Source: an uncultured Acidobacteriota bacterium (lineage in GTDB: Bacteria > Acidobacteriota > Thermoanaerobaculia > Multivoradales > SZUA-115). Taken from it: DNA of 64,000 nt. Position numbers and translations under genes: made by a program. The stretch lies in NCBI GenBank assembly GCA_963805975.1, contig CAWDVR010000003.1, positions 480,001-544,000 on the forward strand. The letters run 5' to 3'. Shown piece after piece: positions 4,207-20,727 of the stretch. Below the pieces are notes generated by a model. That model was not told the origin of the DNA and did no database searches. It worked only from the letters and a program-made list of their open reading frames with translations. Every line of letters starts with the position of its first letter. Within the stretch, counting starts at the first letter, position 1.

Positions 4207-4623
4207 TCAGGGGTAGGAATCCGGCAGGAGCTGGAAGGCCCCGAGCCGGGCCGGCCGGTAGATCGAGAAGTCTCTCTGATCCAGCGTGAAAATCTTGTTG
4301 AGCCGCTCGCGCTCGGCGACTGTCACTAGGGCTGCGTCGGCCAAGTCCATCGGCAGATCCTGATACTTCCGCATCAGCTCGCGCATCCGGGGAGCGTCGG
4401 TCTCGCCGAGCGGCAGGAGGGCCAGAGCCTGACGTTCGACGAGCTCCCAGAGCGCGTCCTGCGCCTGCCACGAGAAGCCGAGCAGGTACATCGCTTCGAC
4501 GAAGGCGGGCCATACTGTACCCAAGGGCTCGCCGAACGATTGGAACGCCTTCGAGCAACGGAGGTGGTGCCGGTCGTCCTTGTGGATCAGGGCAACGAGC
4601 GGACCGGCATCGACGAGGATCAC
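4207..4623 (-). CDS. vapC: PIN-domain toxin (VapC family)
   Basis: ILVDAGPLVAL, MDLADAALV, IFTLDQRDFSIYR. Confidence 0.9.
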   Translation of the reverse strand: MILVDAGPLVALIHKDDRHHLRCSKAFQSFGEPLGTVWPAFVEAMYLLGFSWQAQDALWELVERQALALLPLGETDAPRMRELMRKYQDLPMDLADAALVTVAERERLNKIFTLDQRDFSIYRPARLGAFQLLPDSYP

Positions 4624-4886
4624 GGCCTTTGAGCTCTCCGCTGGGCGAGCACCTCACCGAATTTCTTTCCGGTCTCGATGGAGAGGTCGGGAGAGCCACC
4701 GGAGACGCAGCCGATGAGGTCGGCGACCCGTTGGAAGGGGGTCGCGAAGGTCATCTGCTCGGTGGTGTCGCGGGCGAGGCCGCGAATCGCTTCCCGCAGG
4801 ACCTCGGACTTGGTCAGAGATCTCCGCCTGGCCAGGCTCTCCAGGAGGCGTTCGGTCTCAGGATCCAGGCGCACGCTCGTCGGCAT
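4620..4886 (-). CDS. CopG/RHH antitoxin (VapB-like)
   Basis: MPTSVRLDPETERLLESLARRRSLTKSEVLREAI; DLS motif; overlaps the toxin start. Confidence 0.8.
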   Translation of the reverse strand: MPTSVRLDPETERLLESLARRRSLTKSEVLREAIRGLARDTTEQMTFATPFQRVADLIGCVSGGSPDLSIETGKKFGEVLAQRRAQRP

Positions 4887-4896
4887 GGGCCACCTC

Positions 4897-4916
4897 GTAG
4901 TACAAAACTGTACTAC
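4897..4916. promoter_or_regulatory. Perfect inverted repeat, probable antitoxin operator
   Basis: GTAGTACA-AAAC-TGTACTAC 10 nt upstream of the antitoxin ATG. Confidence 0.75.
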
Positions 4917-4965
4917 AGGGGCTCCATGGCCGCAACGAGGGGGCAAGCCCTCGAAGCTCGTCTCC

Positions 4966-7227
4966 CTACAGCACCCACGCGTACCCCACCTTGAAGAAGA
5001 AGGTCTGGTCCTGGCGGGTGAGGTCGATGCGCTCGTCGCCCAGCGAGTTGTCCGAGTAGCCGAGGAAGAGCACGGTCTGGGGATTGAGCTTGTAGGAGAA
5101 GAGGAGCTGGGAGAAGAGGCGCTCGGTCTTCGGCTCGACCACGGTCGCGGTGTAGAGGTCGGGCTGGCGAGTGATGTCCGTGTACTGGAACACGGTGCGC
5201 AGGAAGGTGCGCAGGTTGAACTGGTAGACCAGCCGGAGCTGCGTCAGGTCGGCGGTGAACAGGCGCCCGCCGGGCACGTCCAGTTGCTGGCGGGCGTGCG
5301 AGAGCTGGAAGCGGGTGTGGGTCCCCGGCGTCCAGCGCACCATGGGCTCGAGGGTGACCATCTCGCCGAGCTGGTTGTTGGTGAAGTCGATCTGGTCGCC
5401 GGCCCTCGCGAAGAGCTGGAAGAAGAGGTCGCCGGTGGCCTGCATCTCGGCGTAGGTCCAGACGAAGTTCTCTCCGAACACCGTGCCGCGCGAGGCTCGG
5501 TCGCGCGTGCCGCCGCCCACCTCGACGTACGTCTGGTGCGGCAGGGAAAGCTCTACCCGCCCTTCCACCTCGCGCTCCAGTAGGTTCCCCGCCTGGTCCT
5601 CGGTCAGGTCCCAGTCGCCGCCCGCCTTGATGCTGTTGTACCAGTCGCCCTCTTCGCCGTACCAGTTGCGGAACAGGCCGCCGAGCCAGAAGGTGTAGTC
5701 CACCTTGGGCATGAAGCCCATGTCGGCGCGGAAGCCGCTGCCGATGTCGTTGTACTCGGCGTACCAGTGCCAGTCGCGGCCCGAGTGGTCGTAGGCCACC
5801 ACGCTGGCGAGGTCGTCGAAGGTGCCGTCGGGCTGGCCGAAGCGGGAGACGACCTCCCCCGGGTACTCGGTCTGCGAGCCCAGGATCTGGAGCTTGAGAG
5901 TGTCTGCCTCGCTCGCCCGGTAGAGGCCGTCGAAGCCGGCCACGGTGTTGGTATAGCCGTCACCCGCGCGGTTGGTGAAGAGCACTCCCACCGCCGAGTT
6001 GCCCTTGAGGTCGCGCCGGTAGCGCAGCACCGTGTCCGTGGTGTCGAGGTCGAGCGACGTGGTCCTCGAGGACTCGTTGCCCGGCAGGAGGAGGTTGGTC
6101 ACCGTGTCCTCGGCGGCGAAGAGGCCCAGGCCGTGCGGGCCGGTCTTGCCGGTGAGCTTCGCCCCCCAGCGCGGATCGGCCACGTTGCGCGTGAAGACGG
6201 CGTTCAGACGGGTGGAGAAGAAGTCCGCGCCTTCGAGGAAGAACGGCCGCTTCTCGGGGAAGAAGAGCGCGAACTGCTCGTTGACCCCGAGCTGGGCGGC
6301 GTCGGCCTCGACCTGCGAGAAGTCCGGGTTCAGGGCGGCGTTGAGCGACAGGTTGGGCGTGATGCCCCAGCGCGCGGTGAGGCCGGGCTCGGTCTCCAGG
6401 TCGCCGGCCTCGAAGTCGCCCTCGGGGAACCCGCTCCGCACGTCGGTGCGGGTGGCGGTGACGGTGGGGGCGACCTCCAGGTTGCGGCCCGGCGTGATGC
6501 CCGAGAAGCCGGTGATCTTCGTCGTCTGGCAGAGGTAGCAGGAGATGTTGCGGTCCATCTTCTGGCTCGACAGGCGGTAGCGGTCCGCACGCGGGTAGTA
6601 GCGGATGGCGTCGATGCCCCAGGTCAGCTCGTGGTCGCTCGCCGGGAAGCGCAGCGACGACCAAGGGATGCGGATCTCCACCTCGTAGCCGCTCTCGGTG
6701 ATGCGGCCCGCCGACTCCCAGATCGCGTCCCAGGTGTCGTCCTCGTTGCCGGAGACGTCGTCGTTGAACATGTCCATCTGCACGCCGAGCGGGTTGACGA
6801 AGAACTCGAAGGCGCGGCGCTCGTCGTTGAAGGTGTCGAGCGCCAGGCCCACGAAGTCGTCGGAGAACGCGGTGTCGCGGTCGGTCAGGTGGGCGACGAT
6901 CGCCTCGGGATCAGGGTCGTGGGCGCGGAACGCGGCGTAGAAGGCGGTCTCGTCGTAGGTGATGAGGCACTCGGTCTCGACCCTGGCGGCGATGTTCTCT
7001 CCCGGCTTGGTCTCGAAGCGCAGCGGGATCACCGTCGCCTGCTCCCAGGCGCCCTCGTTCAACTGGCCGTCGATCGAGATCGCGGAGCCGGCCCGGCCGA
7101 TGCGATACGGAGGGCGCTCGAGCGGGTCCGTGACCTGACCCTCCGCCGCCATCACGGCTGATAAACCCAGACCTGCAAAAAGTCGCACCGCTCGCCTCTG
7201 CCGTCCGCCGATCCCGCGAATTGCCAT
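4966..7227 (-). CDS. CBM9-like / DUF5916 outer-membrane beta-barrel protein
   Basis: IDGQLNEGAW, LDTFNDERRAFEFFVNPLGVQ, NPDFSQVEADAAQ, FFPEKRPFFLEG; ends FFFKVGYAWVL. Confidence 0.85.
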   Translation of the reverse strand: MAIRGIGGRQRRAVRLFAGLGLSAVMAAEGQVTDPLERPPYRIGRAGSAISIDGQLNEGAWEQATVIPLRFETKPGENIAARVETECLITYDETAFYAAFRAHDPDPEAIVAHLTDRDTAFSDDFVGLALDTFNDERRAFEFFVNPLGVQMDMFNDDVSGNEDDTWDAIWESAGRITESGYEVEIRIPWSSLRFPASDHELTWGIDAIRYYPRADRYRLSSQKMDRNISCYLCQTTKITGFSGITPGRNLEVAPTVTATRTDVRSGFPEGDFEAGDLETEPGLTARWGITPNLSLNAALNPDFSQVEADAAQLGVNEQFALFFPEKRPFFLEGADFFSTRLNAVFTRNVADPRWGAKLTGKTGPHGLGLFAAEDTVTNLLLPGNESSRTTSLDLDTTDTVLRYRRDLKGNSAVGVLFTNRAGDGYTNTVAGFDGLYRASEADTLKLQILGSQTEYPGEVVSRFGQPDGTFDDLASVVAYDHSGRDWHWYAEYNDIGSGFRADMGFMPKVDYTFWLGGLFRNWYGEEGDWYNSIKAGGDWDLTEDQAGNLLEREVEGRVELSLPHQTYVEVGGGTRDRASRGTVFGENFVWTYAEMQATGDLFFQLFARAGDQIDFTNNQLGEMVTLEPMVRWTPGTHTRFQLSHARQQLDVPGGRLFTADLTQLRLVYQFNLRTFLRTVFQYTDITRQPDLYTATVVEPKTERLFSQLLFSYKLNPQTVLFLGYSDNSLGDERIDLTRQDQTFFFKVGYAWVL

Positions 7228-7263
7228 GATTTTCCCCCCGAGCTCCAAAGCAGCGCTACTACA

Positions 7264-7287
7264 TACGTGGTAGATGGGAAAACGTTT
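7264..7287 (-). promoter_or_regulatory. ECF-type promoter for the DUF5916 gene
   Basis: Minus strand AAAC-N16-CGTA(TGTA). Confidence 0.55.
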
Positions 7288-7360
7288 GACCATCCCGCAA
7301 GTTCCTGAGGCTAGGACGGACGGCGGTCCGTTTTTCGGGGCTGGGGTGAGGGGGCCTGCT

Positions 7361-7383
7361 AACCGCGGTAGCCTCGGCCCGTC
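7361..7383 (+). promoter_or_regulatory. ECF-type (autoregulatory) promoter for the sigma operon
   Basis: AAC-N16-CGTC ending 5 nt before ATG 7389. Confidence 0.55.
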
Positions 7384-7388
7384 CAAGC

Positions 7389-7976
7389 ATGCGTATGGAA
7401 GCCGAGGAAGCAGCCGTCGTGGAGCGGGCCCGTCAGGGAGACCGGGAGGCCTTCCGGCAGCTCGTCCTCGACCACAGCCGCAACGTGTTCCGTCTCGCCT
7501 TCCGCATCACCGGCGAGGAAGCGAGCGCCGAGGACGTGGTGCAGGAGACCTTCCTCTCGGCCTACCGCGGCCTGGCGCGGTTCGACGGCCGCTCGCGCTT
7601 CGGCACCTGGATCCATCGCATCGCCGTCAACCACTCCGTCGAGGTGCTCCGCCGCCGGCAGCAGATCACCCGGCCGCTGTCGCTCCCGGCGGGCTTCGAC
7701 GAGGGCGAAGGCGAGCTGGCCGCGCTCGAGCCCAGGAGCGGCGAGCCCGGCCCGGACCGCCACGCCGCCTCGGGCCAGATCGCGGCGGTGGCGCGCCGCG
7801 CGCTCGCCGCCCTGACGCCGATGGAGAAGACCGCCTTCGCTCTCCGCCACTTCGAGGGCCGCTCGATCGCCGAGATCGGGAGCGCCCTCGGGGTGCGGGA
7901 GAGCGCCAGCAAACAAGCCGTGTTCCGCGCCGTGCGCAAGCTGCGCGAGGCGTTGCAGCCGTTCGTCACCTGCTAG
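7389..7976 (+). CDS. ECF RNA polymerase sigma factor
   Basis: GDREAF, AEDVVQETFL, FGTWIHRIAVN; region-4 HTH SIAEIGSALG. Confidence 0.95.
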   Translation: MRMEAEEAAVVERARQGDREAFRQLVLDHSRNVFRLAFRITGEEASAEDVVQETFLSAYRGLARFDGRSRFGTWIHRIAVNHSVEVLRRRQQITRPLSLPAGFDEGEGELAALEPRSGEPGPDRHAASGQIAAVARRALAALTPMEKTAFALRHFEGRSIAEIGSALGVRESASKQAVFRAVRKLREALQPFVTC

Positions 7977-7987
7977 GGAGAGCGCCG

Positions 7988-8782
7988 ATGAAGAAGCCCA
8001 GCGAGGAGGACCTGATCATGCACTTCTACGGCGAGAAACCGGAAACCCTCGAAGCGCTCCGCGATCCCGAGGTTCGCGCGCGCTACGACGAGATCGCCCG
8101 CCTGCTCGACAGCGTGCCGCACCCTGCCGTGCCCGAGCGCCCGGTGACCTATGGGGCCGAGGTGTGGGCGAAGCTGGCGCCCCGTCTCGACGCACCGGGC
8201 TCCGGCTCCCTCGCCCCGCGACATCAGGGAGAGGGCCGGCGTGAGGGGCTCCTCCTCGGCCGCCTGTGGGCCTTCCTCACCGGCGGTGCACCGCGCTGGG
8301 CCCTGGCGGGCGCCGCCGCCGCTCTGCTGGTCACGGTGGGCTTCCTCGCCGGCCGCTTCGGGGCGCCGCCTTCGCCCGCGCCGGCGGAGGGGACGCAGGG
8401 GCTCTCGGCCGAGGCGCGGCAGCGCATCCTCACCGGCACGGTGGCGGCCCATCTCGAGGGCTCGGAGCGGCTGCTCCTCGAGAGGGTCAACCGGCCGGCC
8501 GCGGCCGAGATCGACCTCGAGGGCGAGCGCGAGTGGGCCGAGGCCCTGCTCACCACCAACCGCCTCTATCGCCGGGCCGCTCGCGAGGCGGGGCAGCGCC
8601 GCGTCGCCGCCCTGCTCGACGAGCTCGAGCCCATCCTTCTCGATCTGGCGCACGAGGGCGGCGAGCCCACGCCCGCCACCCTCGAAGAGACCCTGTTCAA
8701 GCTGCGGGTCGTCTCCGGCCGCCTCGAAGGCGCCGGCAAGGCGGTCCCGCCGCGCTCGACCCATCCACGCACTTCGACATGA
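7988..8782 (+). CDS. Membrane-spanning anti-sigma factor
   Basis: Follows the ECF; N-terminal EEDLIMHFYGE, one TM segment (WALAGAAAALLVTVGFLAG), LLDELEPILLDLAH. Confidence 0.75.
   Translation: MKKPSEEDLIMHFYGEKPETLEALRDPEVRARYDEIARLLDSVPHPAVPERPVTYGAEVWAKLAPRLDAPGSGSLAPRHQGEGRREGLLLGRLWAFLTGGAPRWALAGAAAALLVTVGFLAGRFGAPPSPAPAEGTQGLSAEARQRILTGTVAAHLEGSERLLLERVNRPAAAEIDLEGEREWAEALLTTNRLYRRAAREAGQRRVAALLDELEPILLDLAHEGGEPTPATLEETLFKLRVVSGRLEGAGKAVPPRSTHPRTST
8206..8248 (+). repeat. CCCTCTCCC-family palindromic repeat inside the anti-sigma reading frame
   Basis: ctccctcgccccgcgacatcagggagagggccggcgtgagggg resembles the reverse complement of 22205-22247. Confidence 0.7.
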
Positions 8783-8829
8783 GACGCCCGCGGACGACGA
8801 CTCCCCGGGCGTTCGACGGAGGACTGAAA

Positions 8830-10089
8830 ATGTTGACAACACCTTGGATCGTGACGTTGAGTCTCGGGCTCTTCTCCGGACCCGGTTTGGGAATCGATCC
8901 CCTGCAGGCGGCGGTGCCTTCCCTCGCCCGGATCGACGCCGAGCGCTCCGGCTACGCGCTGGCGGCGCAGGGCTCCACCCGCGAGCAGACGGCCTACGAC
9001 GTCGGCCGTGCCGCGATCGACGCCGGCCGCTTCTCCGAGGCCGTCGAGACCTTTCGCAAGCTCGCCGCCGAGGGCGGGCCGGAGGTGGACCGCGCTCTCT
9101 TCTGGCAGGCCTACAGCGAGGCCAAGGCGACCCGCACCACCGCGGCGCTCGCCACCCTGAAGCGGCTCAAGGCCGAGCACCCGGAGAGCCCCTGGCTCGA
9201 CGATGCGCGGGCCCTGGAGGTCGAGGTGCGGGGCGCCGGGGCGGGCCCGGCGGTGGCGGGCGACGACGAGGAGCTGAAGCTCTACGTGCTCGACGGCCTG
9301 CTCTCCTCGGACTCCGAGCGCGCCGTGCCCCTGCTGCTCAAGTTCCTGGCCGGCAACCACTCCGACGCGCTCAAGGCGAAGGCGCTCTTCGTGCTCTCGC
9401 AGAGCGAATCACCCGAGGCTTTCCAGGCGCTGCTCAAGATCGCGCGCGGTGCCGAGCAGCCGCGGCTCCAGCTCGAGGCCGTCCGCGTGCTGGGGGTCTC
9501 GGGCGAGGACGCGGCGGTCAAGGCCTTGGAGGAGCTGTACCGCACCTCGTCCAGCCGTGAGATCAAGGCGGAGGTGATCCAGGGCTTCCTGGTCGCGGAC
9601 GCCACGGCGCCGCTCGTGCGCCTGGCGAAGGAGGAGAAGGACCCGCAGCTCAGGGCCGAGGCCATCCGCACCCTGGGAGCGACCGACGGCGGCGCCGAGC
9701 TCGCGGGGCTGTACGCGGCGGAGACCTCGCGTGAGATCAAGGCCGAGATCCTGCGCGCCATGGGCGTGGCAGGTGAGGAGAAGGCGCTCGCACGCCTGGC
9801 CAGGGAGGAGAAGGACCCCGAGCTCAAGGCCGAGGCCATCCGCGGCCTGGGCATCACCGACGACGAGGAGGCCGGAACGGCGCTCGCCGAGATCTATCGC
9901 CAGACGAGCGACCGGAAGGTGAAGTCGGAGGTGCTCAACTCCCTGTTCGTCCAGGACAACGCCAAGGCCCTCCTCGCCATCTTCAAGAGCGAGACCGACC
10001 GCGAGCTCAAGCGCGAGGCCCTGCGCTTCCTGTCGATGATCGACGACGAGGCCTCCTCCGAGCTGCTCGATTCGATCCTCAATGACTGA
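8830..10089 (+). CDS. Exported TPR + HEAT-repeat protein
   Basis: N-terminal hydrophobic segment; TPR-like ALFWQAYS...HPESPWLDDARAL; repeated E.DP.L.AEAIR.LG HEAT units. Alternative start 8779. Confidence 0.8.
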   Translation: MLTTPWIVTLSLGLFSGPGLGIDPLQAAVPSLARIDAERSGYALAAQGSTREQTAYDVGRAAIDAGRFSEAVETFRKLAAEGGPEVDRALFWQAYSEAKATRTTAALATLKRLKAEHPESPWLDDARALEVEVRGAGAGPAVAGDDEELKLYVLDGLLSSDSERAVPLLLKFLAGNHSDALKAKALFVLSQSESPEAFQALLKIARGAEQPRLQLEAVRVLGVSGEDAAVKALEELYRTSSSREIKAEVIQGFLVADATAPLVRLAKEEKDPQLRAEAIRTLGATDGGAELAGLYAAETSREIKAEILRAMGVAGEEKALARLAREEKDPELKAEAIRGLGITDDEEAGTALAEIYRQTSDRKVKSEVLNSLFVQDNAKALLAIFKSETDRELKREALRFLSMIDDEASSELLDSILND

Positions 10090-10114
10090 CCTTCACGGGC
10101 GAGGGAGACCAGCC

Positions 10115-11047
10115 ATGACGAGAAGAGTCCTGATCTCGACCGCCGCCTGCGCGCTCGCCGCCGCCGGGCTGATGGCGGCGGCGTCGAGCAGCAAAGGGTT
10201 CGGCGACGGCGAGCGGCCGGGGACGAGAATGCCCGTCGAGCTGGCCGCCGCGGATACGGCGCCGGTGAGTGGGGCGCCGGCGAGCGGGGCGCCCGCGGTC
10301 CCGGTGGGCTCAGGCGGCCTCGCCGCCGCGGTGCGCAAGGCCGGGCAGGGCGGAGCGGAGTGGATCGCCTACCAGGTGCCCATGGTGGCCGGCCAGAGCT
10401 TCACCTGTTGCTGGGACCGCTCCTGGAAGCAGAGCGCCTGTTTCCTCGAAAAGAGCAACCAGAGCTGGGGAGGGCGCGGCGACGACAAACCCGAACGGCA
10501 GGATCTCGCCGTGCTCCTGCGCGTCGAGAACGGGCGGGTGGGGAAGCTCCGCGGCGTGTCCGCCGGTTGTCCGATCGACCCCGGCGGCAAGCGGCTGACC
10601 TGGCTCTCCGGCGTCGGCGAGGAGGAGAGCCTGGCGCTCCTGGGCGGCCTGCTGGCCGGCAAGGAAGACGTGCGCTCGCAGGGTGACGAGGCTTTCGCCG
10701 TCATCGCCTTCCACGCCGCGCCGCGGGCCGACGCGCTGCTCGACGAGCTCGCGCGGACCGGCGCTCCCAAGCGGCGCAGCGAGGCCCTGTTCTGGATCGC
10801 GCAGCGGGGCGCGCCCGGTGCGGCGGAGACCATCCTCGCCGCCATCGACCGCGAGACCTCCTCCGAGGTGCGCGAGCAGGGCGTGTTCGCGCTCTCCCAG
10901 CTCCCCGACGACGCCGGCACCCGGGGCCTCCTCGGCCTGCTCCAGGGAAACCGCTCGGCCGACGTCCGCCGCCAGGCCCTCTTCTGGCTCGCCCAGTCCG
11001 ACGACCCCAGGGCCTTCGACGCGCTGGAGGAGATCCTGGAGCGGTGA
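10115..11047 (+). CDS. Exported HEAT-repeat protein
   Basis: Signal peptide; EALFWIAQ, VREQGVFALSQL, VRRQALFWLAQSDDPRA. Alternative start 10082. Confidence 0.8.
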   Translation: MTRRVLISTAACALAAAGLMAAASSSKGFGDGERPGTRMPVELAAADTAPVSGAPASGAPAVPVGSGGLAAAVRKAGQGGAEWIAYQVPMVAGQSFTCCWDRSWKQSACFLEKSNQSWGGRGDDKPERQDLAVLLRVENGRVGKLRGVSAGCPIDPGGKRLTWLSGVGEEESLALLGGLLAGKEDVRSQGDEAFAVIAFHAAPRADALLDELARTGAPKRRSEALFWIAQRGAPGAAETILAAIDRETSSEVREQGVFALSQLPDDAGTRGLLGLLQGNRSADVRRQALFWLAQSDDPRAFDALEEILER

Positions 11048-11059
11048 GTACGGCCGGCC

Positions 11060-12517
11060 TCACGCCTGGAGCGCGGCGAGCAGCTCGTCGAGCGGCACGC
11101 TCGCGATGGCGGAGGCCTTGTCGCTCATGGCGTAGGGCAGGATCAGCTCGCGGCCGTGGATCAGGGAGCCGCAGCTATAGACGACGTTGGGCACGTAGCC
11201 CTCGCGTTCGTTGCCCGCGGGCGAGAGCAGGGGCTCGCGGAGGCGGCCGATCACTCGGGTGGGGTCCTGCAAGTCGAGCAGCGCGGCGCCGATGCAGTAC
11301 TTGCGCATCGGGCCGACGCCATGGGTGATGACCAGCCAGCCGGCCTCGGTCTCGATCGGCGAGCCGCAGTTGCCGACCTTCACCGACTCCCACAGCTCCG
11401 CGGGGCGCATGAGCACCTGCGGGTCGCTCCAGTAGTGGGGGTTGTCCGAGAACATGATGAAGAGGTTCTCGTCGTCCTGCCGCGAGAGCATGGCGTAGCG
11501 GCCGTCGATGCGGCGCGGGAAGAGCGCCATGCCCTTGTTCTGCACGGCGCTGCCGTTCAGGGTGAGCACGCGGAAGCTGAGAAAGTCCTGCGTCTCGATG
11601 AGCTGGGGGAGGATGGCGCGTCCGTTGTAGGCGGTGTAGGTGGCGTAGTAGAGGACGGATCCGTCGTCCTCGGTGAGACGGACGAAGCGCGCGTCCTCGA
11701 TGCCGTTGCTCTCGTTCGGCGAGACGGGAAAGATGATGCGCTCGCTCATGGCGATGGTCGGTGAGAAGAGCAGCTCGTAGTTGGATTCGGCGAGCCACTG
11801 GATGCACTCGAGGGTGCGGTCGAGGTCGCGGGTGACGGGCAGCGCCTCGCGCCGGACGCGGGCCACGCTCTTGTCCAGATCGCTGAGGGTGAAGCTATCC
11901 GACAGCGCCGTCATCACCGCGGCGGCGTGGTCGTTCTCGAAATCCATCTCGTGCAGCTTGATGGCGAAGCGTTTCTTTCTGTAGGAGGGGTTGGGGACGA
12001 TCTGCGGCAGGGTGACGAAGCGGGAGACCGGGTCCAGCTCGATGCCGCCGTCCGGTGCGATGAGACCGGTGCGGAACTCGATCGAAGAGATGTGCCCTTC
12101 GCCGGTGGCGCGCAGGCTCAAGATGAAGCGCAAGCCGCCCTCGGGCACGCCGCTCTGGTCGGGATGGGGCACGATCGAGGGGTTGAACAGCGCGGCGGAC
12201 TCCAGCGCGTACTCCATGGAAAAAAGCGCGCCGACGAGGAGTTGCCGCACGCGCGAGAGCGGACGCTGCGTGAAGATGTGGGGCCGCACCGTCTCGTAAT
12301 TCGCGAGCAGGCGCGGCTCGACGTCGAGGTGCCGGGAATCGAACTCCAGAAGCACGGCTTCGAGGTCGCGAGTGGCTTCCTCCTCACTCACGGCGAGCGC
12401 GCGGCCGATGATGGTGGTGATGCGCTTGGCGTCCGCGGGAATGAAGGGGCGCAGGAGGACCCGCGCGCTCTCGGGCACGAGCCTGACGTCGTGGCGGTGG
12501 AGCTGGATGGGCTTCAT
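11060..12517 (-). CDS. Glycoside hydrolase family 130-like glycosidase/phosphorylase
   Basis: ALFNPSIVPHPDQ, ESNGIEDARFV, YATYTAYNG, NKGMALFPR, REGYVPNVVYSCG. Confidence 0.9.
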   Translation of the reverse strand: MKPIQLHRHDVRLVPESARVLLRPFIPADAKRITTIIGRALAVSEEEATRDLEAVLLEFDSRHLDVEPRLLANYETVRPHIFTQRPLSRVRQLLVGALFSMEYALESAALFNPSIVPHPDQSGVPEGGLRFILSLRATGEGHISSIEFRTGLIAPDGGIELDPVSRFVTLPQIVPNPSYRKKRFAIKLHEMDFENDHAAAVMTALSDSFTLSDLDKSVARVRREALPVTRDLDRTLECIQWLAESNYELLFSPTIAMSERIIFPVSPNESNGIEDARFVRLTEDDGSVLYYATYTAYNGRAILPQLIETQDFLSFRVLTLNGSAVQNKGMALFPRRIDGRYAMLSRQDDENLFIMFSDNPHYWSDPQVLMRPAELWESVKVGNCGSPIETEAGWLVITHGVGPMRKYCIGAALLDLQDPTRVIGRLREPLLSPAGNEREGYVPNVVYSCGSLIHGRELILPYAMSDKASAIASVPLDELLAALQA

Positions 12518-14799
12518 TCGGCGGGCCGCGGTGAGCCGGAGAGCAAGTGTTCGGCGCAGCTCATCTCGGCCAGGGAAAGCTGGAAGGCCAGCGACGACTC
12601 GGCACCCTGGTTCTCGTTGATGCGATCCTGGTGCAGCCCGTCGGCGCAGCCCCCGGTGCTGGAGTCGTAGAGCGGCAGGCCGAGATCATTGCGCCCCAGG
12701 AACCACTCGAAGGCGCGTTTCGCCTCGCGGGACCACACCGCATCCTGGGTGGCGCGGAAAGCATCGAGACAGGCGGAGACCATGGCCTGCGCTTCCACCG
12801 GCTGTTGGTCGAAGTCGGCGCGTGCGCCGTCCCGCTTGTAAAAACCGTTGCTGCCGATGGGACGGAAGTGGCCGGCCTGCGTCTTTTGCAGCGAAGCCAG
12901 CCAGCGGAGGGACTCGAGACCGATCTCCAGCGCCTCGGCGTTCGGCGTCGAGAGGCCGCTCAGGATGAGAGCCTGGCAGAGGCGCGCGTTGTCGTAGGTG
13001 GCGATCGGCTCGAACCACGGCCAGTCCTCGGTGGCGCAACCCTTCCACAGGTTGACGAGCTTTCCGGTCAGCAGGTCGCGCGCGGCGCTCGCCTCGATAT
13101 GGCCGGCGAAGCGTTGCAGGTACTCGTGGATGCCCAGCAGCGTGAAGGCCCAGGCGCGCGGCGAGGAGAACGACTCGACGCCGGCCAGGCCGCGCTCGAA
13201 GAGCTGGGCGGCCAATCTCCGGTGGCCCTTCTTGCGGGAGCGCCCGGCCCCGAGCCCCAGGGCCCAGAGCGCCCGCGCGTGACTGTCCTCGCTGCCCGCA
13301 TCTTCCAGCCACTGGCGTCCGTGGCTCATGAAATTGCGGAAGCGGCCGGTGTCGTGATTCAGGGCCGCGGCCAGAAACGCCAGATAGCTGGTGGTCAGCT
13401 TGTCGAGGTTCTCCGCCGGCGGCTGGTCACCGAGCTCGTCCAGGAGGTTGCAGAGGATGAAGGCGCGTGCGTTGTCGTCGGTGCAGTAGCCCTCGTGGAA
13501 GTTCGGCACGTCGAAGATCGCGTGCTGCAGGATGCCGGTCCCGTCGCTCATGCGCAGGAAATGGTCGAGCCGCAGCGGCGGCAGGTCGTAGGGCCGGCTG
13601 GCAAGCGTCCAACCGGCAAACGCCGCGCGCGGCGTCGCTCTGCGGTCGGCGCGGGCCCGTTGAAAGGACTCGAGGTAGCGTAGCCCGACCGCGGGCCAGA
13701 TCATCTCCCGCCCGAGCTGGTAGGCGGCTTCGCGCGTCTGCCGGAGAAGGGCCGGATCGTCGAGGAACCGGCACACGCCCTCGACGATGGCCCGTGGGTC
13801 GCGGAAGGGCACCAGGATGCCACGGCCGTCGGCGAGCAGCTCCCGCGCGTGCCAGTAGGGTGTGGAGACCACCGCCTTTCCGGCGCCGAAGACGTAGGCG
13901 AGCGTCCCCGAGGTGATCTGCTCCTCGTTGAGGTACGGGGTGAGGTAGATGTCCGTCGCACCGATGAACTCTTTGAGGTCGTCGAGCGACACGAAGCGGT
14001 TGTAGAAGATGACGTGCTCTTTGACCCCGCGGTCCTCGGCCAGCCGCTCCAGGCTCAGGCGGTAGCTCTCGCCTTCGCGGGCGAGGAGATGGGGATGGGT
14101 GGCCCCCAGCACGAGATAGACCACGTTCGGATGCAGCCGGACGATCTCCGGCAGCGCCTCGATGGCGTGCTCGATGCCTTTGCCCGGCCCGAGCAGGCCG
14201 AAGGTGAGCAGCACGATGCGGCCCTCCACACCGAACTGCGCCTTGTAGACGCTCGAGTCGAGGAAGGGGATGTCCGGGATGCCGTGCTGGATGAGGTCCA
14301 CCTTGGCGTCCGGCACGCCGTACGTGTCGCGCAGGATCTCCGCACCCTTGCGCGCCATCACCACCACCCGGTCGCTGCGCCGCATCAGCTCGTCCATCAC
14401 CTTGCGCTGCGCGGTGCTCGGCTCGCGCAGCACCGTGTGCAGTGTCGTCACCACCGGCATGCGCACTTCTTTGAGCAGGGCGAGGAGATGGCTCCCCGCC
14501 GGCCCGCCGTAGATGCCGAACTCGTGCTGCACGCAAAGCACGTCGGCGTTGTTGAAGTTCAGGAAGTCCGCGGCACGCCGGTAGGAATCCAGATCTTTTT
14601 CCAGCAGCTCGAAGCGCACGCGCGGCGGGTAGTGGTAGCCCTCCACGCGGTCGTTCACCGCTCCCACGTAACAGTGCGCAGCGGGAGCTTCCGCCGCCAC
14701 CGCCTCGCAGAGATCGTGCGTGAACGTGGCGATGCCGCACAGCCGGGGCAGGTAGTCGCCCAGGAAGGCGATCCGCTGCGGCAGGGTGGATTCCATCAA
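12514..14799 (-). CDS. GT4 glycosyltransferase with a C-terminal glycosidase-like helical domain
   Basis: YLPRLCGIATFT, QHEFGIYGG, FGLLGPGKGIE, SGTLAY, GYCTDDNARA, FDQQPVEA, NQGAES. Confidence 0.9.
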   Translation of the reverse strand: MMESTLPQRIAFLGDYLPRLCGIATFTHDLCEAVAAEAPAAHCYVGAVNDRVEGYHYPPRVRFELLEKDLDSYRRAADFLNFNNADVLCVQHEFGIYGGPAGSHLLALLKEVRMPVVTTLHTVLREPSTAQRKVMDELMRRSDRVVVMARKGAEILRDTYGVPDAKVDLIQHGIPDIPFLDSSVYKAQFGVEGRIVLLTFGLLGPGKGIEHAIEALPEIVRLHPNVVYLVLGATHPHLLAREGESYRLSLERLAEDRGVKEHVIFYNRFVSLDDLKEFIGATDIYLTPYLNEEQITSGTLAYVFGAGKAVVSTPYWHARELLADGRGILVPFRDPRAIVEGVCRFLDDPALLRQTREAAYQLGREMIWPAVGLRYLESFQRARADRRATPRAAFAGWTLASRPYDLPPLRLDHFLRMSDGTGILQHAIFDVPNFHEGYCTDDNARAFILCNLLDELGDQPPAENLDKLTTSYLAFLAAALNHDTGRFRNFMSHGRQWLEDAGSEDSHARALWALGLGAGRSRKKGHRRLAAQLFERGLAGVESFSSPRAWAFTLLGIHEYLQRFAGHIEASAARDLLTGKLVNLWKGCATEDWPWFEPIATYDNARLCQALILSGLSTPNAEALEIGLESLRWLASLQKTQAGHFRPIGSNGFYKRDGARADFDQQPVEAQAMVSACLDAFRATQDAVWSREAKRAFEWFLGRNDLGLPLYDSSTGGCADGLHQDRINENQGAESSLAFQLSLAEMSCAEHLLSGSPRPAE

Positions 14800-15990: not shown

Positions 15991-16029
15991 ACAGACATCT
16001 TGGAGATCTGAGGCGGGGCGATGTGGAAG

Positions 16030-16045
16030 TGGCGCCACGCTTGCT
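16030..16045 (+). promoter_or_regulatory. Sigma54 (-24/-12) promoter
   Basis: TGGCGCCACGCTTGCT with exact GG-N10-GC spacing, upstream of an operon encoding a sigma54 activator. Confidence 0.7.
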
Positions 16046-16107
16046 ATCTCGGCCCTCGCACGCAGTGCGAGCCGCTTCCGGGAGCCGGGAGCAGAAGGGG
16101 CAGGCCG

Positions 16108-17463
16108 ATGAGGAGAGCCGCGATCGGGAACCACTTGCGAGGAGGGCGCGCCTGGGCGCTGGCGATCGCCTGCGCCTGGGCTTTCGCCGCGGCGCCTCCG
16201 GCCTCCGGCCAGGAGGTACCAGGAGGCGATCCGCCCGATGCGCCGGCGGCCTTCCTCCTCGAGACGATCACGGTCGAGGGCACCCGCCATGCCTCACCGG
16301 AGCTGATCCTCGCCGAGTCCCTGCTCAGGGCCGGGCAGAGCTACACCGAGACCGCGCTCCGCCAGGGCGTGTACCGGGTCCGGCGCCTGCCCTTCGTGCG
16401 TGCGGCGCGCTTCGCGCTACGCAAGGGGAGCGCGCGCGGCAGCTACGAGCTGGTGATCACGGTGGAAGAGACGCACCGCGTGTTCTTCGGCGCCGAGACC
16501 TCGCTCGCCAAGGGTGCCGAATGGCAGCTCGGGGGTGTGGGCACGGTGGGTGGCCGGGTCTTCGTGGGCGCGCACGGCGTGGCGTTCGCAGCGGTGCGAG
16601 GCGCGCAGGCAAGAGTCGGTTACACCCACTACAACCTGTTCAACCGGCGGGCCTTCGCCAGCCTGGAGATCGGCCGCACGGACGACTGCTGCGGCGGCCT
16701 CACCTACGACCACGTGTTCGGCGGCCCAAACTTCGACAGCGTGCCGACGGACACGGACAGCGCGGAGCTGACGCTCGGCTTCCCGGTGGCCCGCAACCAG
16801 ACGGTGCAGCTCTCGCTCCTCGCCGACCAGACCGACGGTTTCGGCCGCGCCCTCTCCATCTCGGGCCAGGGCGAGGTTCTCGAAGTGCGGTTTCCGGTCG
16901 ACGCGCGGCAGCGCCGCGCGGAGCTGCGGTGGGTGCTCGATACCAGCGACGACCCGGTGGTGCCGAGCCGGGGCACCGTGGTCACGGCGCTGGTGGGCGC
17001 GGCCGAGAGCAAGCGGGACGCACGGTTCTTCCGTCCCGGGTCCCAGCCACCCGCGGAGCAGAGCGTGCGCTTCGAGGACGAGTTCGTGAACGCGTCGATC
17101 TCGGCCCGCCACTTCTGGCCGCTGTCCGTCCGCCAGTCGCTGTCGCTCGCGGCCACCCTCTCGACCACCCGGTCCAGCAACGAGAACGAGATCTGCTGCT
17201 TCCCGGCCGAGAGCCGCTTCTCGGGAGATGTCACCTCCGAGGGCAGCGTGCTCGACCTCGGCTACGCGGCGAGCTTGTGGAGCGAGGAGCAGACCCGGCG
17301 CCGGGGCGACTTCCGTTTCGAGGCCAGGGTCAGCCCAGCCGTGGTGGCCCGCGACGGCTTCGAGGACGCCATTTTCTTCGCCCATCTGGACGCCGGCCTG
17401 ATCTTCCGCAACGCCTGGGGCATCTTCCGCTTCCGGGTCTTCTACCAGCTGGTGGAGGGCTGA
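16108..17463 (+). CDS. Omp85/BamA-like protein (one POTRA domain + beta-barrel)
   Basis: Signal peptide; POTRA-like LETITVEGTR...YTETALRQGVYRV...LVITVEE; YTHYNLFNR; LDTSDDPVVPSRG. Confidence 0.7.
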   Translation: MRRAAIGNHLRGGRAWALAIACAWAFAAAPPASGQEVPGGDPPDAPAAFLLETITVEGTRHASPELILAESLLRAGQSYTETALRQGVYRVRRLPFVRAARFALRKGSARGSYELVITVEETHRVFFGAETSLAKGAEWQLGGVGTVGGRVFVGAHGVAFAAVRGAQARVGYTHYNLFNRRAFASLEIGRTDDCCGGLTYDHVFGGPNFDSVPTDTDSAELTLGFPVARNQTVQLSLLADQTDGFGRALSISGQGEVLEVRFPVDARQRRAELRWVLDTSDDPVVPSRGTVVTALVGAAESKRDARFFRPGSQPPAEQSVRFEDEFVNASISARHFWPLSVRQSLSLAATLSTTRSSNENEICCFPAESRFSGDVTSEGSVLDLGYAASLWSEEQTRRRGDFRFEARVSPAVVARDGFEDAIFFAHLDAGLIFRNAWGIFRFRVFYQLVEG

Positions 17464-17465
17464 CG

Positions 17466-18143
17466 GTGAGACCGGCGAGAGCCTTGCTGCCGTGGGTCCT
17501 GCGGGGGGTCCTGCGGACTGCGGCCCTGTCCTCGATGGCCCTGCCCCTGGCTTCGGGTGCCGCCGAGGAGCCGCCGCAGTTGCGCCTGGCGGAAGGCCGC
17601 CTGCACCTCGTCTCTTTGCCGCAGATCCTCGATCTGACCGAGGTGCGGGAGCCGCTCGCGAGCGGGCTCACCACCAGCTTCGTCTTCGAGGTGACGGCGC
17701 GGGACGGCGCCGGCGGCAAGAGCACCGGCGGCGCCGTGGTCGAGATCCGCTACGAGCTGTGGGACGAGGTCTACCTGGTGATGGCGCTGGGCGCCCGGGG
17801 GGTGCGACAGCGGACCACGCTCGCCTCCCGCGAGCAGCTCCTCGACTGGTGGCGGACGCTCGACCTGACGGTGGCCGACGCCGGCGGGCTGGCGCCCTCC
17901 GCGGCCTGGCAGGCCCGGGTGCGCCTCGCGGTGCTGCCGTTCTCGAGCGCCGAGCAGCGCGACGCGCAGCGCTGGTTCTCGCGCTCGCTCGACAGCACCG
18001 AGCCCGGCGCCGGCGACGCTTCCGTGGGCGAGGCTTCCGACGTGCTGAACCTGCTGATCGCCACCTCGATCGCCCGGGACTCCGCGCTGAGCTTCGACTG
18101 GCGGCTCGCGGTGCCGGCCAGCGCGAGGGGGCCGGGGGGTTGA
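17466..18143 (+). CDS. Exported protein, DUF4390-like
   Basis: GTG start, signal-like N-terminus; LASGLTTSFVF...IRYELWDEVY; immediately precedes a kinase. Confidence 0.6.
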   Translation: MRPARALLPWVLRGVLRTAALSSMALPLASGAAEEPPQLRLAEGRLHLVSLPQILDLTEVREPLASGLTTSFVFEVTARDGAGGKSTGGAVVEIRYELWDEVYLVMALGARGVRQRTTLASREQLLDWWRTLDLTVADAGGLAPSAAWQARVRLAVLPFSSAEQRDAQRWFSRSLDSTEPGAGDASVGEASDVLNLLIATSIARDSALSFDWRLAVPASARGPGG

Positions 18144-19359
18144 GCCTGCGCGCGGGTCTCGCAGCGCTCGCGGCGCTCCTGGCGGTGGCCGCGGCGGCGT
18201 TCCTGCTTTTCGAGCGGCAGCTCGCCGGCGCCTGGTTCGCCTTCGGCGTCCATCCGGACGTGGTCGCCGCGCTCGAGAAGAGCGTCGAGGACCAGAAGAA
18301 GCTCAGCCGCCTCGACCCCGGCCACGAGGCGGCCTACCGCGAGAGCTTCGTCGAGATCGACACGCTCCGGAAGCGCCTGCGCGTGGTGGAGCACAACCGG
18401 CGCGCCATCGTGCGCCGCTTCGCGCTGGTGCTCTTCGCCGCCTTCGGCGCGGTGGTGGCCGCGGCGGCGGTGGCCTATGCGGCGCAGAAGAACCGCGAGC
18501 GCCGGCGGCTCGAGCGCCTGCGGACCGCGCTCGAAGAGCTCTGCGCCGGCCGCCCGGACATCCGCCTGGGCGAGGCGCGGCGCGACGCCATCGGCCGGGT
18601 GGCGGCGATGATCGAGAGCACCTCGCGGCTGATGGCCGCGCACCGCCGGCGGCTCTCGGCGTTAGAGAACCTCTCGGCCTGGCAGGAGGCGGCCCGCCGC
18701 CACGCCCACGAGATGCGCACGCCGCTTACCGCGGCGCGGCTGGAGGTGGAGCGCCTATCGCAGGTGGCGGGCGAGCTCGGGGTGCGCGGCGAGCCGGTCG
18801 GGGAAGTGGCCGGCAGCCTGGCGCACGAGCTGGACCGGCTGGCGGTCTTCACCCGCCGTTTCACCAGCTTCGCCCGTCTGCCGCAGCCCCGCCCCGTGCG
18901 CCAGGACCTGGGCGCTCTCGCCCGCGAGCTGGTCACCACCTTTGGCGAGGCCTGGCCCAACCTCAAGCTCGAGCTGGTGCCGAGCGCCGCCGGCGAGACC
19001 TTCCCGGTGGAGGTCGATCGCGAGATGCTCCGCCAGGTGCTGGTCAACCTCTGCGACAACAGCGCTCTCGCCGTGGGCGAGCGCGGCGGTACGGTGCGGC
19101 TGGCGCTCGGTGACACGGCGGAGGGCGTCTCTCTCACCGTGGCCGACGACGGCCCCGGCGTAGTACCCGAGATCCGCCGCCGGCTGTTCGAGCCCTACGC
19201 CACCACACGCAAGGTGGGCGAGGGCATGGGGCTGGGGCTCGCCATCGCCAAGAAGGTCCTGCTCGACCACGGCGGCGACCTCGAGCTGGTCGAGACCTCC
19301 GAGCGCGGCACCATCTTCCGCCTGCTCTTCCCGCGTCCCGACGTTTCGAGAGGAGAGCC

Positions 19360-19363
<4 letters not shown>
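18140..19363 (+). CDS. Membrane sensor histidine kinase (NtrY-like)
   Basis: TTG overlapping the upstream stop; 2 TM; H-box AARRHAHEMRTPL; NLCDN, DDGPG, GMGLGL. Confidence 0.9.

Positions 19364-20727
<1,364 letters not shown>

Follow-up and report, generated by a model that had tools for sequence, protein, structure and literature searches.

The DNA analysed here, referred to as the window, is a stretch of 64,000 nt from contig CAWDVR010000003.1 (positions 480,001-544,000, forward strand) of assembly GCA_963805975.1; with the genome labelled G000, it is G000:C3:480001-544000. The closest database records are titled Thermoanaerobaculia or phylum Acidobacteriota. In the window, a gene for a predicted outer-membrane barrel of the DUF5916 family stands back to back with an operon that encodes an extracytoplasmic function (ECF) sigma factor, an anti-sigma factor and two exported HEAT-repeat proteins, here called H1 and H2 (Table 1). 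A first-pass annotation had recognized all of these genes as well as the CBM9-like N-terminal domain of the barrel, and our analysis agrees, with a weak export signal for H1 in this genome; the gap between the start codons of barrel and ECF measures 161 bp (7228-7388) where 160 bp had been given. The same annotation proposed that the HEAT proteins relay a signal, perhaps a carbohydrate, from the barrel to the anti-sigma factor, with the ECF controlling both arms.

Table 1. Features of the barrel-ECF locus, with positions in the window
Feature	Position	Strand	Description
ECF sigma factor	7389..7976	+	ECF277s5-like, 195 amino acids (aa); Sigma70_r2 and r4_2; inside a 127-row clade with Shimodaira-Hasegawa-like approximate likelihood ratio test (SH-aLRT) support of 99
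Anti-sigma factor	7988..8782	+	264 aa; RsiW/ZAS-type cytoplasmic domain without zinc cysteines, one transmembrane (TM) helix, conserved periplasmic domain
H1	8830..10089	+	Exported TPR + HEAT solenoid; TPR_16, HEAT_2; alternative start 8779 overlaps the anti-sigma stop
H2	10115..11047	+	Exported; HEAT repeats preceded by an N-terminal beta domain that has conserved cysteines; HEAT_2; model predicted local distance difference test (pLDDT) score 86.1; alternative start 10082
Operon self-promoter	7358..7386	+	GCTAAC-N16-CGTCCAA; 24.3 bits; best site in the 5.36 Mb of G000 scanned for promoter sites, on a matrix trained without it
Barrel promoter P2	7261..7289	-	TCAAAC-N16-CGTATGT, SigW-type; T-tract after the -35 element; kept in same-genus genome
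Best minus-strand match to local ECF consensus	7285..7315	-	CCTAGC-N18-GGTCAAA; 5.9 bits; position differs from the intact P1 of a relative
DUF5916/CBM9_1 outer-membrane protein	4966..7227	-	753 aa with export signal; a CBM9-fold domain precedes the predicted 24-strand beta-barrel, and the C-terminal aromatic motif is YAWVL; above-cut-off Pfam matches to PF19313 and PF06452
CBM9-fold N-terminal domain of barrel	6496..7113	-	Z 18.1-19.2, root-mean-square deviation (rmsd) 3.0-3.1 against 4jpq, 7nwn and 1i82
Long conserved loop after barrel strand 3 (Pfam DUF5916 core)	6175..6327	-	Invariant columns are packed most densely here in a 105-row alignment; partly low-confidence in the model

Loci carrying the operon were collected from three sources, namely the anti-sigma-positive genomes of an order-level sample (61 genomes, G000 included), the best 80 of 520 GTDB candidates found with the H1 alignment as query, and 40 of the strongest matches in a search of 401 genomes of the phylum. 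Removal of 6 duplicates left 130 first-tier loci, and 40 more distant ECF/anti-sigma loci made up a second tier. All four genes are present at 114 of the 130 loci, H1 occurs without H2 at 12 (4 of them within 700 bp of the locus end), and within the order 16 of the 61 genomes, including G000, have the anti-sigma factor. One copy (L028, genome G052), in which ECF and H1 are each split over two frames, is broken or mis-assembled. The motif AAC-N16-CGT by itself is no guide to promoters, as it occurs 20 times in the window (10 per strand) and thus not above chance, so that sites had to be judged by conservation. Before the operon, (G/C)CTAAC-N16/17-(C/A)GTCTAA recurs in 117 of the 122 other loci with upstream DNA. 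These 117 sites, picked by a consensus seed, trained the matrix for the local ECF (5 other loci were dropped and the window site was excluded); they score 11.3-28.1 bits, with C at the fourth -10 position in 114/117 and a terminal A in 116/117. In the window the site ends 2 nt upstream of the ECF ATG, which suggests a leaderless transcript, and neither a sigma-70 promoter nor an intrinsic terminator was found between 4000 and 11300. Judged by sequence, ECF, anti-sigma factor and the two exported HEAT proteins are one conserved unit with its own promoter across Acidobacteriota.

The proteins of the unit were compared in alignments of 95 rows each. The anti-sigma factor has one hydrophobic segment near residues 104-124, its family profile matches the anti-sigma domain of RsiW (5wuq, E 1.7e-5), and no FecR match was obtained among the 95 members. 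The HxxxCxxC motif, kept in 64/95 rows (zf-HC2 in 16/95), is absent from the window's protein, a lineage-specific loss; the fold match to RsiW remains. L187, R192, R195 and L210 are invariant; the periplasmic domain covers residues ~135-255. The two HEAT alignments show a hydrophobic N-terminal stretch in 75/95 and 85/95 rows, as judged by hydropathy; for H1 of this genome the best 19-residue hydropathy is 1.28. H1 has weak, below-cut-off matches to BamD/YbgF. In H2, cysteines are found at position 98 in 89% and at position 152 in 98% of the rows, and the window's copy has an alignment gap in place of a middle repeat block that most relatives possess. A fold search with H2 returned generic HEAT matches only, and a search of the Atlas returned only its own cluster (0.76). 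Elsewhere in this genome there are two HEAT matches, both weak. A complex prediction for the periplasmic domain of the anti-sigma factor with H1 and H2 scored 0.16 against a mark of 0.32 and was used neither for nor against an interaction.

This gene layout has been published before. In a computational description, Casas-Pastor et al. 2021 (PMC7826278) defined an Acidobacterial group, ECF277s5, in which a one-TM zinc-finger anti-sigma factor at position +1 is followed by HEAT proteins at +2 and +3; the text on this group suggests that the sensor includes the repeats. The window shares with ECF277s5 the phylum, the single-TM anti-sigma factor at +1 and the HEAT proteins at +2 and +3. We call its ECF ECF277s5-like, an assignment made from the published description. 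The anti-sigma factor of the window differs in lacking the zinc cysteines, which most relatives have. The ECF277 text gives the promoter motif as 'not conserved', whereas it is conserved in 117/122 loci here. PDZ proteins are reported nearby at 0.5 per ECF, not universally; a home-made PDZ profile found them near 0/130 first-tier and 5/40 second-tier loci, two of these five (L255 and L256) falling in the window's ECF clade. No mention of DUF5916 was found in the part of the supplement searched. Our literature search retrieved no paper naming ECF277 in its main text, and the passages considered in PMC3174227 contribute nothing on the ECF-anti-sigma-HEAT-HEAT unit. The operon appears to be an ordinary-type ECF module of a described group.

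The two outward-facing AAC-N16-CGT promoters of the first-pass annotation are located where it placed them and each of them is conserved, but they belong to different types, GCTAAC..CGTCCAA on the plus and TCAAAC..CGTATGT on the minus strand. A third AAC-N16-CGT (7306-7278) overlaps the minus site and scores poorly on both matrices. The minus site, P2, scores +11.9 bits on a matrix for SigW-like ECFs versus -12.4 on that of the local ECF. Among the order's 29 orthologous barrels, 21 are preceded by a site of the P2 type, AAC-N16/17-(C/A)GTA, where shuffles of the 29 regions gave a mean of 0.66 and a maximum of 5, and 14 of the 19 barrels in genomes with no anti-sigma match have one. Three other ECF genes in G000 carry CGTA self-promoters; one of them is closest to SigW by NCBIfam, below the cut-off. 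This SigW-like ECF (G000:C4:399794-400378) occurs in 58/61 genomes of the order, and its self-promoter is TG(A/C)AAC-CGTA in 29/29. In Bacillus subtilis, promoters of sigma-W are characterized by CGTA and those of sigma-M, -X and -V by CGTC, with overlap (PMC5758882). We predict that P2 is read mainly by the SigW-like ECF encoded elsewhere in the genome. Genome-wide, G000 has 56 AAAC-N16/17-CGTA sites, which together suggest a SigW-like regulon. Many of them lie 5-50 nt before genes whose N-termini, read by eye, resemble those of ADOP permeases, exported proteases, PadR and membrane proteins.

Conservation of the neighbourhood extends to the four-gene unit but hardly to the barrel: among the 115 loci for which 1.5 kb or more of upstream DNA was available, only 7 have it divergent from the unit. 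In the six other divergent loci the barrel is preceded, without exception, by P2 and by a promoter of the local ECF type (P1, 15.2-20.2 bits). The window has P2 only, with no match at the P1 position of the same-genus genome, and its weak minus-strand match to the local consensus (Table 1) is probably not functional. The proposal that the ECF controls both arms is thus borne out by sequence in the relatives but not in the window, where the minus site is of the SigW type. DUF5916 is found near 7/40 second-tier loci. At 5 of these (families f49 and f28), which form a second lineage, a distinct DUF5916 protein of about 880 aa is encoded downstream; two of the five have a promoter of their own ECF's type, and at one (L244) the gene lies 25 bp after the HEAT gene. 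A cognate site of 23.8 bits precedes a DUF5916 gene that has no ECF within 5 kb (L336).

On the ECF tree, a quick build of 158 rows from which ECFs below 125 bits or 150 aa were excluded, 21 rows have DUF5916 nearby; this label needs 11 changes, at least 7 of them forced by starred branches. On the barrel tree, the ECF-adjacent barrels are spread over several subfamilies and that of the window groups with non-adjacent barrels of its own family. Chance adjacency in the window's divergent clade was rejected, as P1 occurs in 6/6 relatives. The idea that all 15 first-tier DUF5916 neighbours are meaningful was rejected, as 8 of them lack a cognate site; these belong mostly to families f39 and f64, in which many genomes hold 12-21 copies, so that some of the neighbours may be due to chance. 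Copy numbers of 12-21 were found in 10 of 51 unit-bearing genomes (families f39, f64 and f27). As far as sequence goes, DUF5916 is tied to the ECF family, loosely, as a promoter-bearing neighbour in two separate lineages. Further genes accompany some of these loci: between barrel and ECF, the same-genus genome encodes an exported protein of 258 aa that contains cysteines and matches no Pfam family (L021:3016-3792, +), and three f49 loci (L230, L233 and L246) have a cyclophilin-like gene, named by sequence reading, between HEAT operon and DUF5916. L233 has a second DUF5916 gene just upstream of the ECF, while its downstream DUF5916 is in two reading frames.

The AlphaFold2 model of the barrel has a pLDDT of 90.4 and a predicted template-modelling score of 0.87, and the count of 24 strands is our reading of its DSSP list. 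A sequence search found no solved relative of the barrel, its fold matches are generic (Z 15-18, high rmsd), and the literature search found no paper naming DUF5916. The pattern of short turns and long loops in the model suggests a periplasmic position for the CBM9-fold domain, and the conserved loop that follows strand 3 probably reaches into the lumen of the pore. The export signal is weak in this genome (best 19-residue hydropathy 1.18). The profile match of the CBM9-fold domain to 1i82 is weak (E 0.0055); in this weak alignment, W71 of 1i82 aligns to Phe and a nearby Glu to Gly, and W175 lies outside the aligned stretch. W71 and W175 form the two-tryptophan sugar clamp of CBM9. Apart from the CBM9 fold, nothing speaks for the suggested carbohydrate signal. 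G000 also encodes a DUF5916 paralogue of 359 aa (G000:C2 ~334417-335496; L036:9417-10496, -) that has undergone an in-frame internal deletion, leaving the CBM9-fold domain and the first strands joined to the last ~36 residues. GCAAAC-N16-CGTCTTA lies upstream of this paralogue, which is flanked by a tRNA-like sequence and tufA.

The distribution of barrel and unit makes it unlikely that the barrel is the signal receptor of the local system. With no match at E 1e-30 to the 105-row DUF5916 profile taken as absence, 13 of the 51 unit-bearing genomes are without the family, one of them a one-contig, 99%-complete genome; ten of the 13 had been chosen as Terriglobia-type records, with no completeness figure for these ten. 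The Pfam DUF5916 model found nothing in 6 of the 13, while it was positive in 4 control genomes. Conversely, DUF5916 is present in 60/61 genomes of the order and in 44 of the 45 that lack the anti-sigma factor, and the unit lies within 5 kb at 0/22 metagenome barrel loci. Because the unit is complete where DUF5916 is missing and the barrel is common where the unit is missing, the barrel does not appear to be the source of the signal that the first-pass annotation had in mind, and on the 13/51 genomes it was also rejected as an obligatory partner of the unit.

If not a receptor, the barrel is likely a product of ECF stress responses. Beyond the operon there are few cognate sites. In G000, the second-best site of the genome (C1:755598, +, 23.1 bits) lies 7 nt before an exported amidohydrolase-like gene (L188:3635-5146), and a weaker one precedes an ADOP permease. 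Genome G001 has cognate sites before the same amidohydrolase (L219), an S41 peptidase and, as P1 (C197:2740-2769), the barrel. In four Terriglobia-type genomes without DUF5916 (L348-L363), 12 non-self sites lie 5-50 nt upstream of genes for 4 ADOP permeases, 3 acidobacterial PadR proteins, 1 DUF4097, 1 TIGR03435, 2 small exported proteins and 1 unassigned open reading frame (ORF); one of the small exported proteins resembles a target in G035. This list resembles envelope and antimicrobial-peptide defence regulons. Total pattern counts were discarded as evidence for a regulon, and because they do not exceed the reversed control the regulon rests on the position of the sites before start codons.

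Our preferred reading, to which we give a probability of roughly 0.6, is that the operon is a conserved self-activating envelope-stress switch and that the DUF5916 barrel is an output of ECF stress responses and not the receptor of this system. Four genes that, by sequence, travel together under their own promoter would form its core. The membrane anti-sigma factor would hold the ECF inactive, as its RsiW-like domain suggests. The two exported solenoids may bind or guard the anti-sigma factor's periplasmic domain and so act as the sensing part, as gene linkage, the analogy with RseB/MucB and the anti-sigma-HEAT fusions of ECF277s1, ECF231 and ECF275 suggest. By analogy, envelope damage would remove the guard, the anti-sigma factor would be cut, and the ECF would be freed; an M50 (RseP-type) protease with PDZ domains is encoded in the genome. 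From the promoter sites, the freed ECF would transcribe its own operon and a few envelope genes, namely ADOP permeases, PadR-ADOP pairs, exported hydrolases and small exported proteins. DUF5916 genes would be targets in relatives via P1; in this genome the barrel gene has P2 only, which would be read mainly by the SigW-like ECF.

Several observations weigh against this reading. H2 is absent from 8 loci despite ample downstream DNA. In raw numbers, the pattern does not outdo its reversed control (25 vs 80; 16 vs 12), and the promoter assignment depends on consensus-seeded matrices. As a SigW-like site P2 is only moderate, its score being reached by 64 of the genome's 7759 AAC..GT cores, and in two relatives P2 attains no more than 2.0 and 4.5 bits. 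Outside the order, sites of the P2 type are rare (2/21 metagenome barrel loci), so that the type is a feature of the order, not of the DUF5916 family. Three of the 117 relatives of the local ECF have a GTA-type self-promoter. Finally, P2 has an AAC-G-TTTT tract; in B. subtilis, according to PMC5758882, a T-tract after AAC (AACnTTTT) lets the CGTC-type sigma-V read CGTA promoters.

The last point opens a rather unlikely alternative, in which the local ECF cross-reads P2 and so drives both arms in the window as well. The barrel would remain an output, and P1 would have become dispensable once P2 had gained its T-tract. Retention of the divergent arrangement and of a cognate promoter before the barrel in 6/6 relatives would fit. 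However, P2 is strongly negative on the cognate matrix, the training sites scarcely vary from C at the fourth -10 position and A at the end, and the window ECF has the common FDGRS loop, whereas the three GTA-type relatives have deviant loops. Less probable still is that H1 and H2 are effectors, produced in the stress response as chaperones or scaffolds of the periplasm (e.g., for outer-membrane proteins), with the periplasmic domain of the anti-sigma factor as the sensor. The TPR part of H1 is weakly like BamD/YfiO, above the Pfam cut-off in two distant relatives, and several distant anti-sigma relatives have no adjoining HEAT gene. On the other side stand the gene order, which is fixed at 114/130 loci, and the occurrence of HEAT repeats within the anti-sigma factor itself in ECF277s1, ECF231 and ECF275 (described in PMC7826278), which argues for a regulatory role.

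We give still less weight to TonB-independent surface signalling, in which, at least where the genes have remained linked, the DUF5916 barrel is a transducer whose periplasmic CBM9-fold domain reports a ligand or the folding state of the barrel to the HEAT solenoids, these gate the anti-sigma factor and the ECF makes more barrel. The HEAT pair would then be a general periplasmic adaptor with other inputs where DUF5916 is absent. Repeated linkage on the ECF tree, the barrel directly after the HEAT gene in L244 and the predicted periplasmic position of the N-terminal domain agree with such a relay, and P1 is compatible with it, as the receptor gene is itself an ECF target in true cell-surface signalling (PMC11637429). 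However, the unit is complete without DUF5916 and the barrel common without the unit, not one metagenome barrel has the unit nearby, the adjacent barrels come from several subfamilies, and the neighbours without a cognate site may partly reflect chance in f39/f64. A literature search on TonB-independent surface signalling found no paper. A FecA-type system was rejected, as there is no TonB receptor, plug or STN match in the window's barrel, no FecR domain and no co-inheritance of the barrel.

RpoE-RseA-RseB, AlgU-MucA-MucB and SigW-RsiW are known ECF-anti-sigma systems with membrane-bound regulation, in which RseB and MucB are LolA-fold partners. The unit shares with them a self-activated ECF (here by sequence only), a single-pass anti-sigma factor with the RsiW profile match, a co-encoded exported partner and envelope-type targets. 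It differs in having two TPR/HEAT solenoids in place of RseB/MucB, a different promoter and no protease in the operon. With FecA-FecR-FecI and FoxA-FoxR-FoxI it shares the closeness of an ECF and a membrane anti-sigma factor to an outer-membrane barrel, whose N-terminal domain is predicted to be periplasmic here too, and, in relatives, predicted ECF control of the barrel gene. In contrast to these, the window has no TonB-dependent receptor, plug or FecR domain, its barrel is not required and its ECF is self-activating; TonB plug and FecR domain define surface signalling (PMC11637429). Another ECF type also combines ECF, one-TM anti-sigma factor and a non-TonB barrel in one locus. Its barrel is usually fused or at position +2, whereas in the window it is optional, on the other strand and from a much larger family.

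Other genes surround the locus. The barrel gene is immediately followed, on its own strand, by a vapBC-like pair of a ribbon-helix-helix (RHH) antitoxin and a PIN-domain gene (4207-4946, -). A GT4 glycosyltransferase and a GH130-family gene (11060-14799, -) converge on the end of the HEAT operon, and a GH130 gene is also found distantly downstream of the operon in G001. Further on (16021-20727, +) come, in this order, a protein of 480 aa that matches no Pfam family, a sensor kinase-like ORF and a sigma-54 response regulator.

In conclusion, the presented analysis supplies a sharp consensus for a promoter that the published classification had described as not conserved, and with it the regulon becomes testable. 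The predicted regulon includes ADOP permeases and PadR regulators, both large Acidobacteriota families of unknown role. A relay from barrel to anti-sigma factor would, if true, be a new kind of trans-envelope signalling, although the distribution data argue against it. For DUF5916, a family with up to 21 copies per genome, a predicted 24-strand barrel and a CBM9-fold domain, its apparent repeated wiring to envelope-stress sigma factors offers a first handle.

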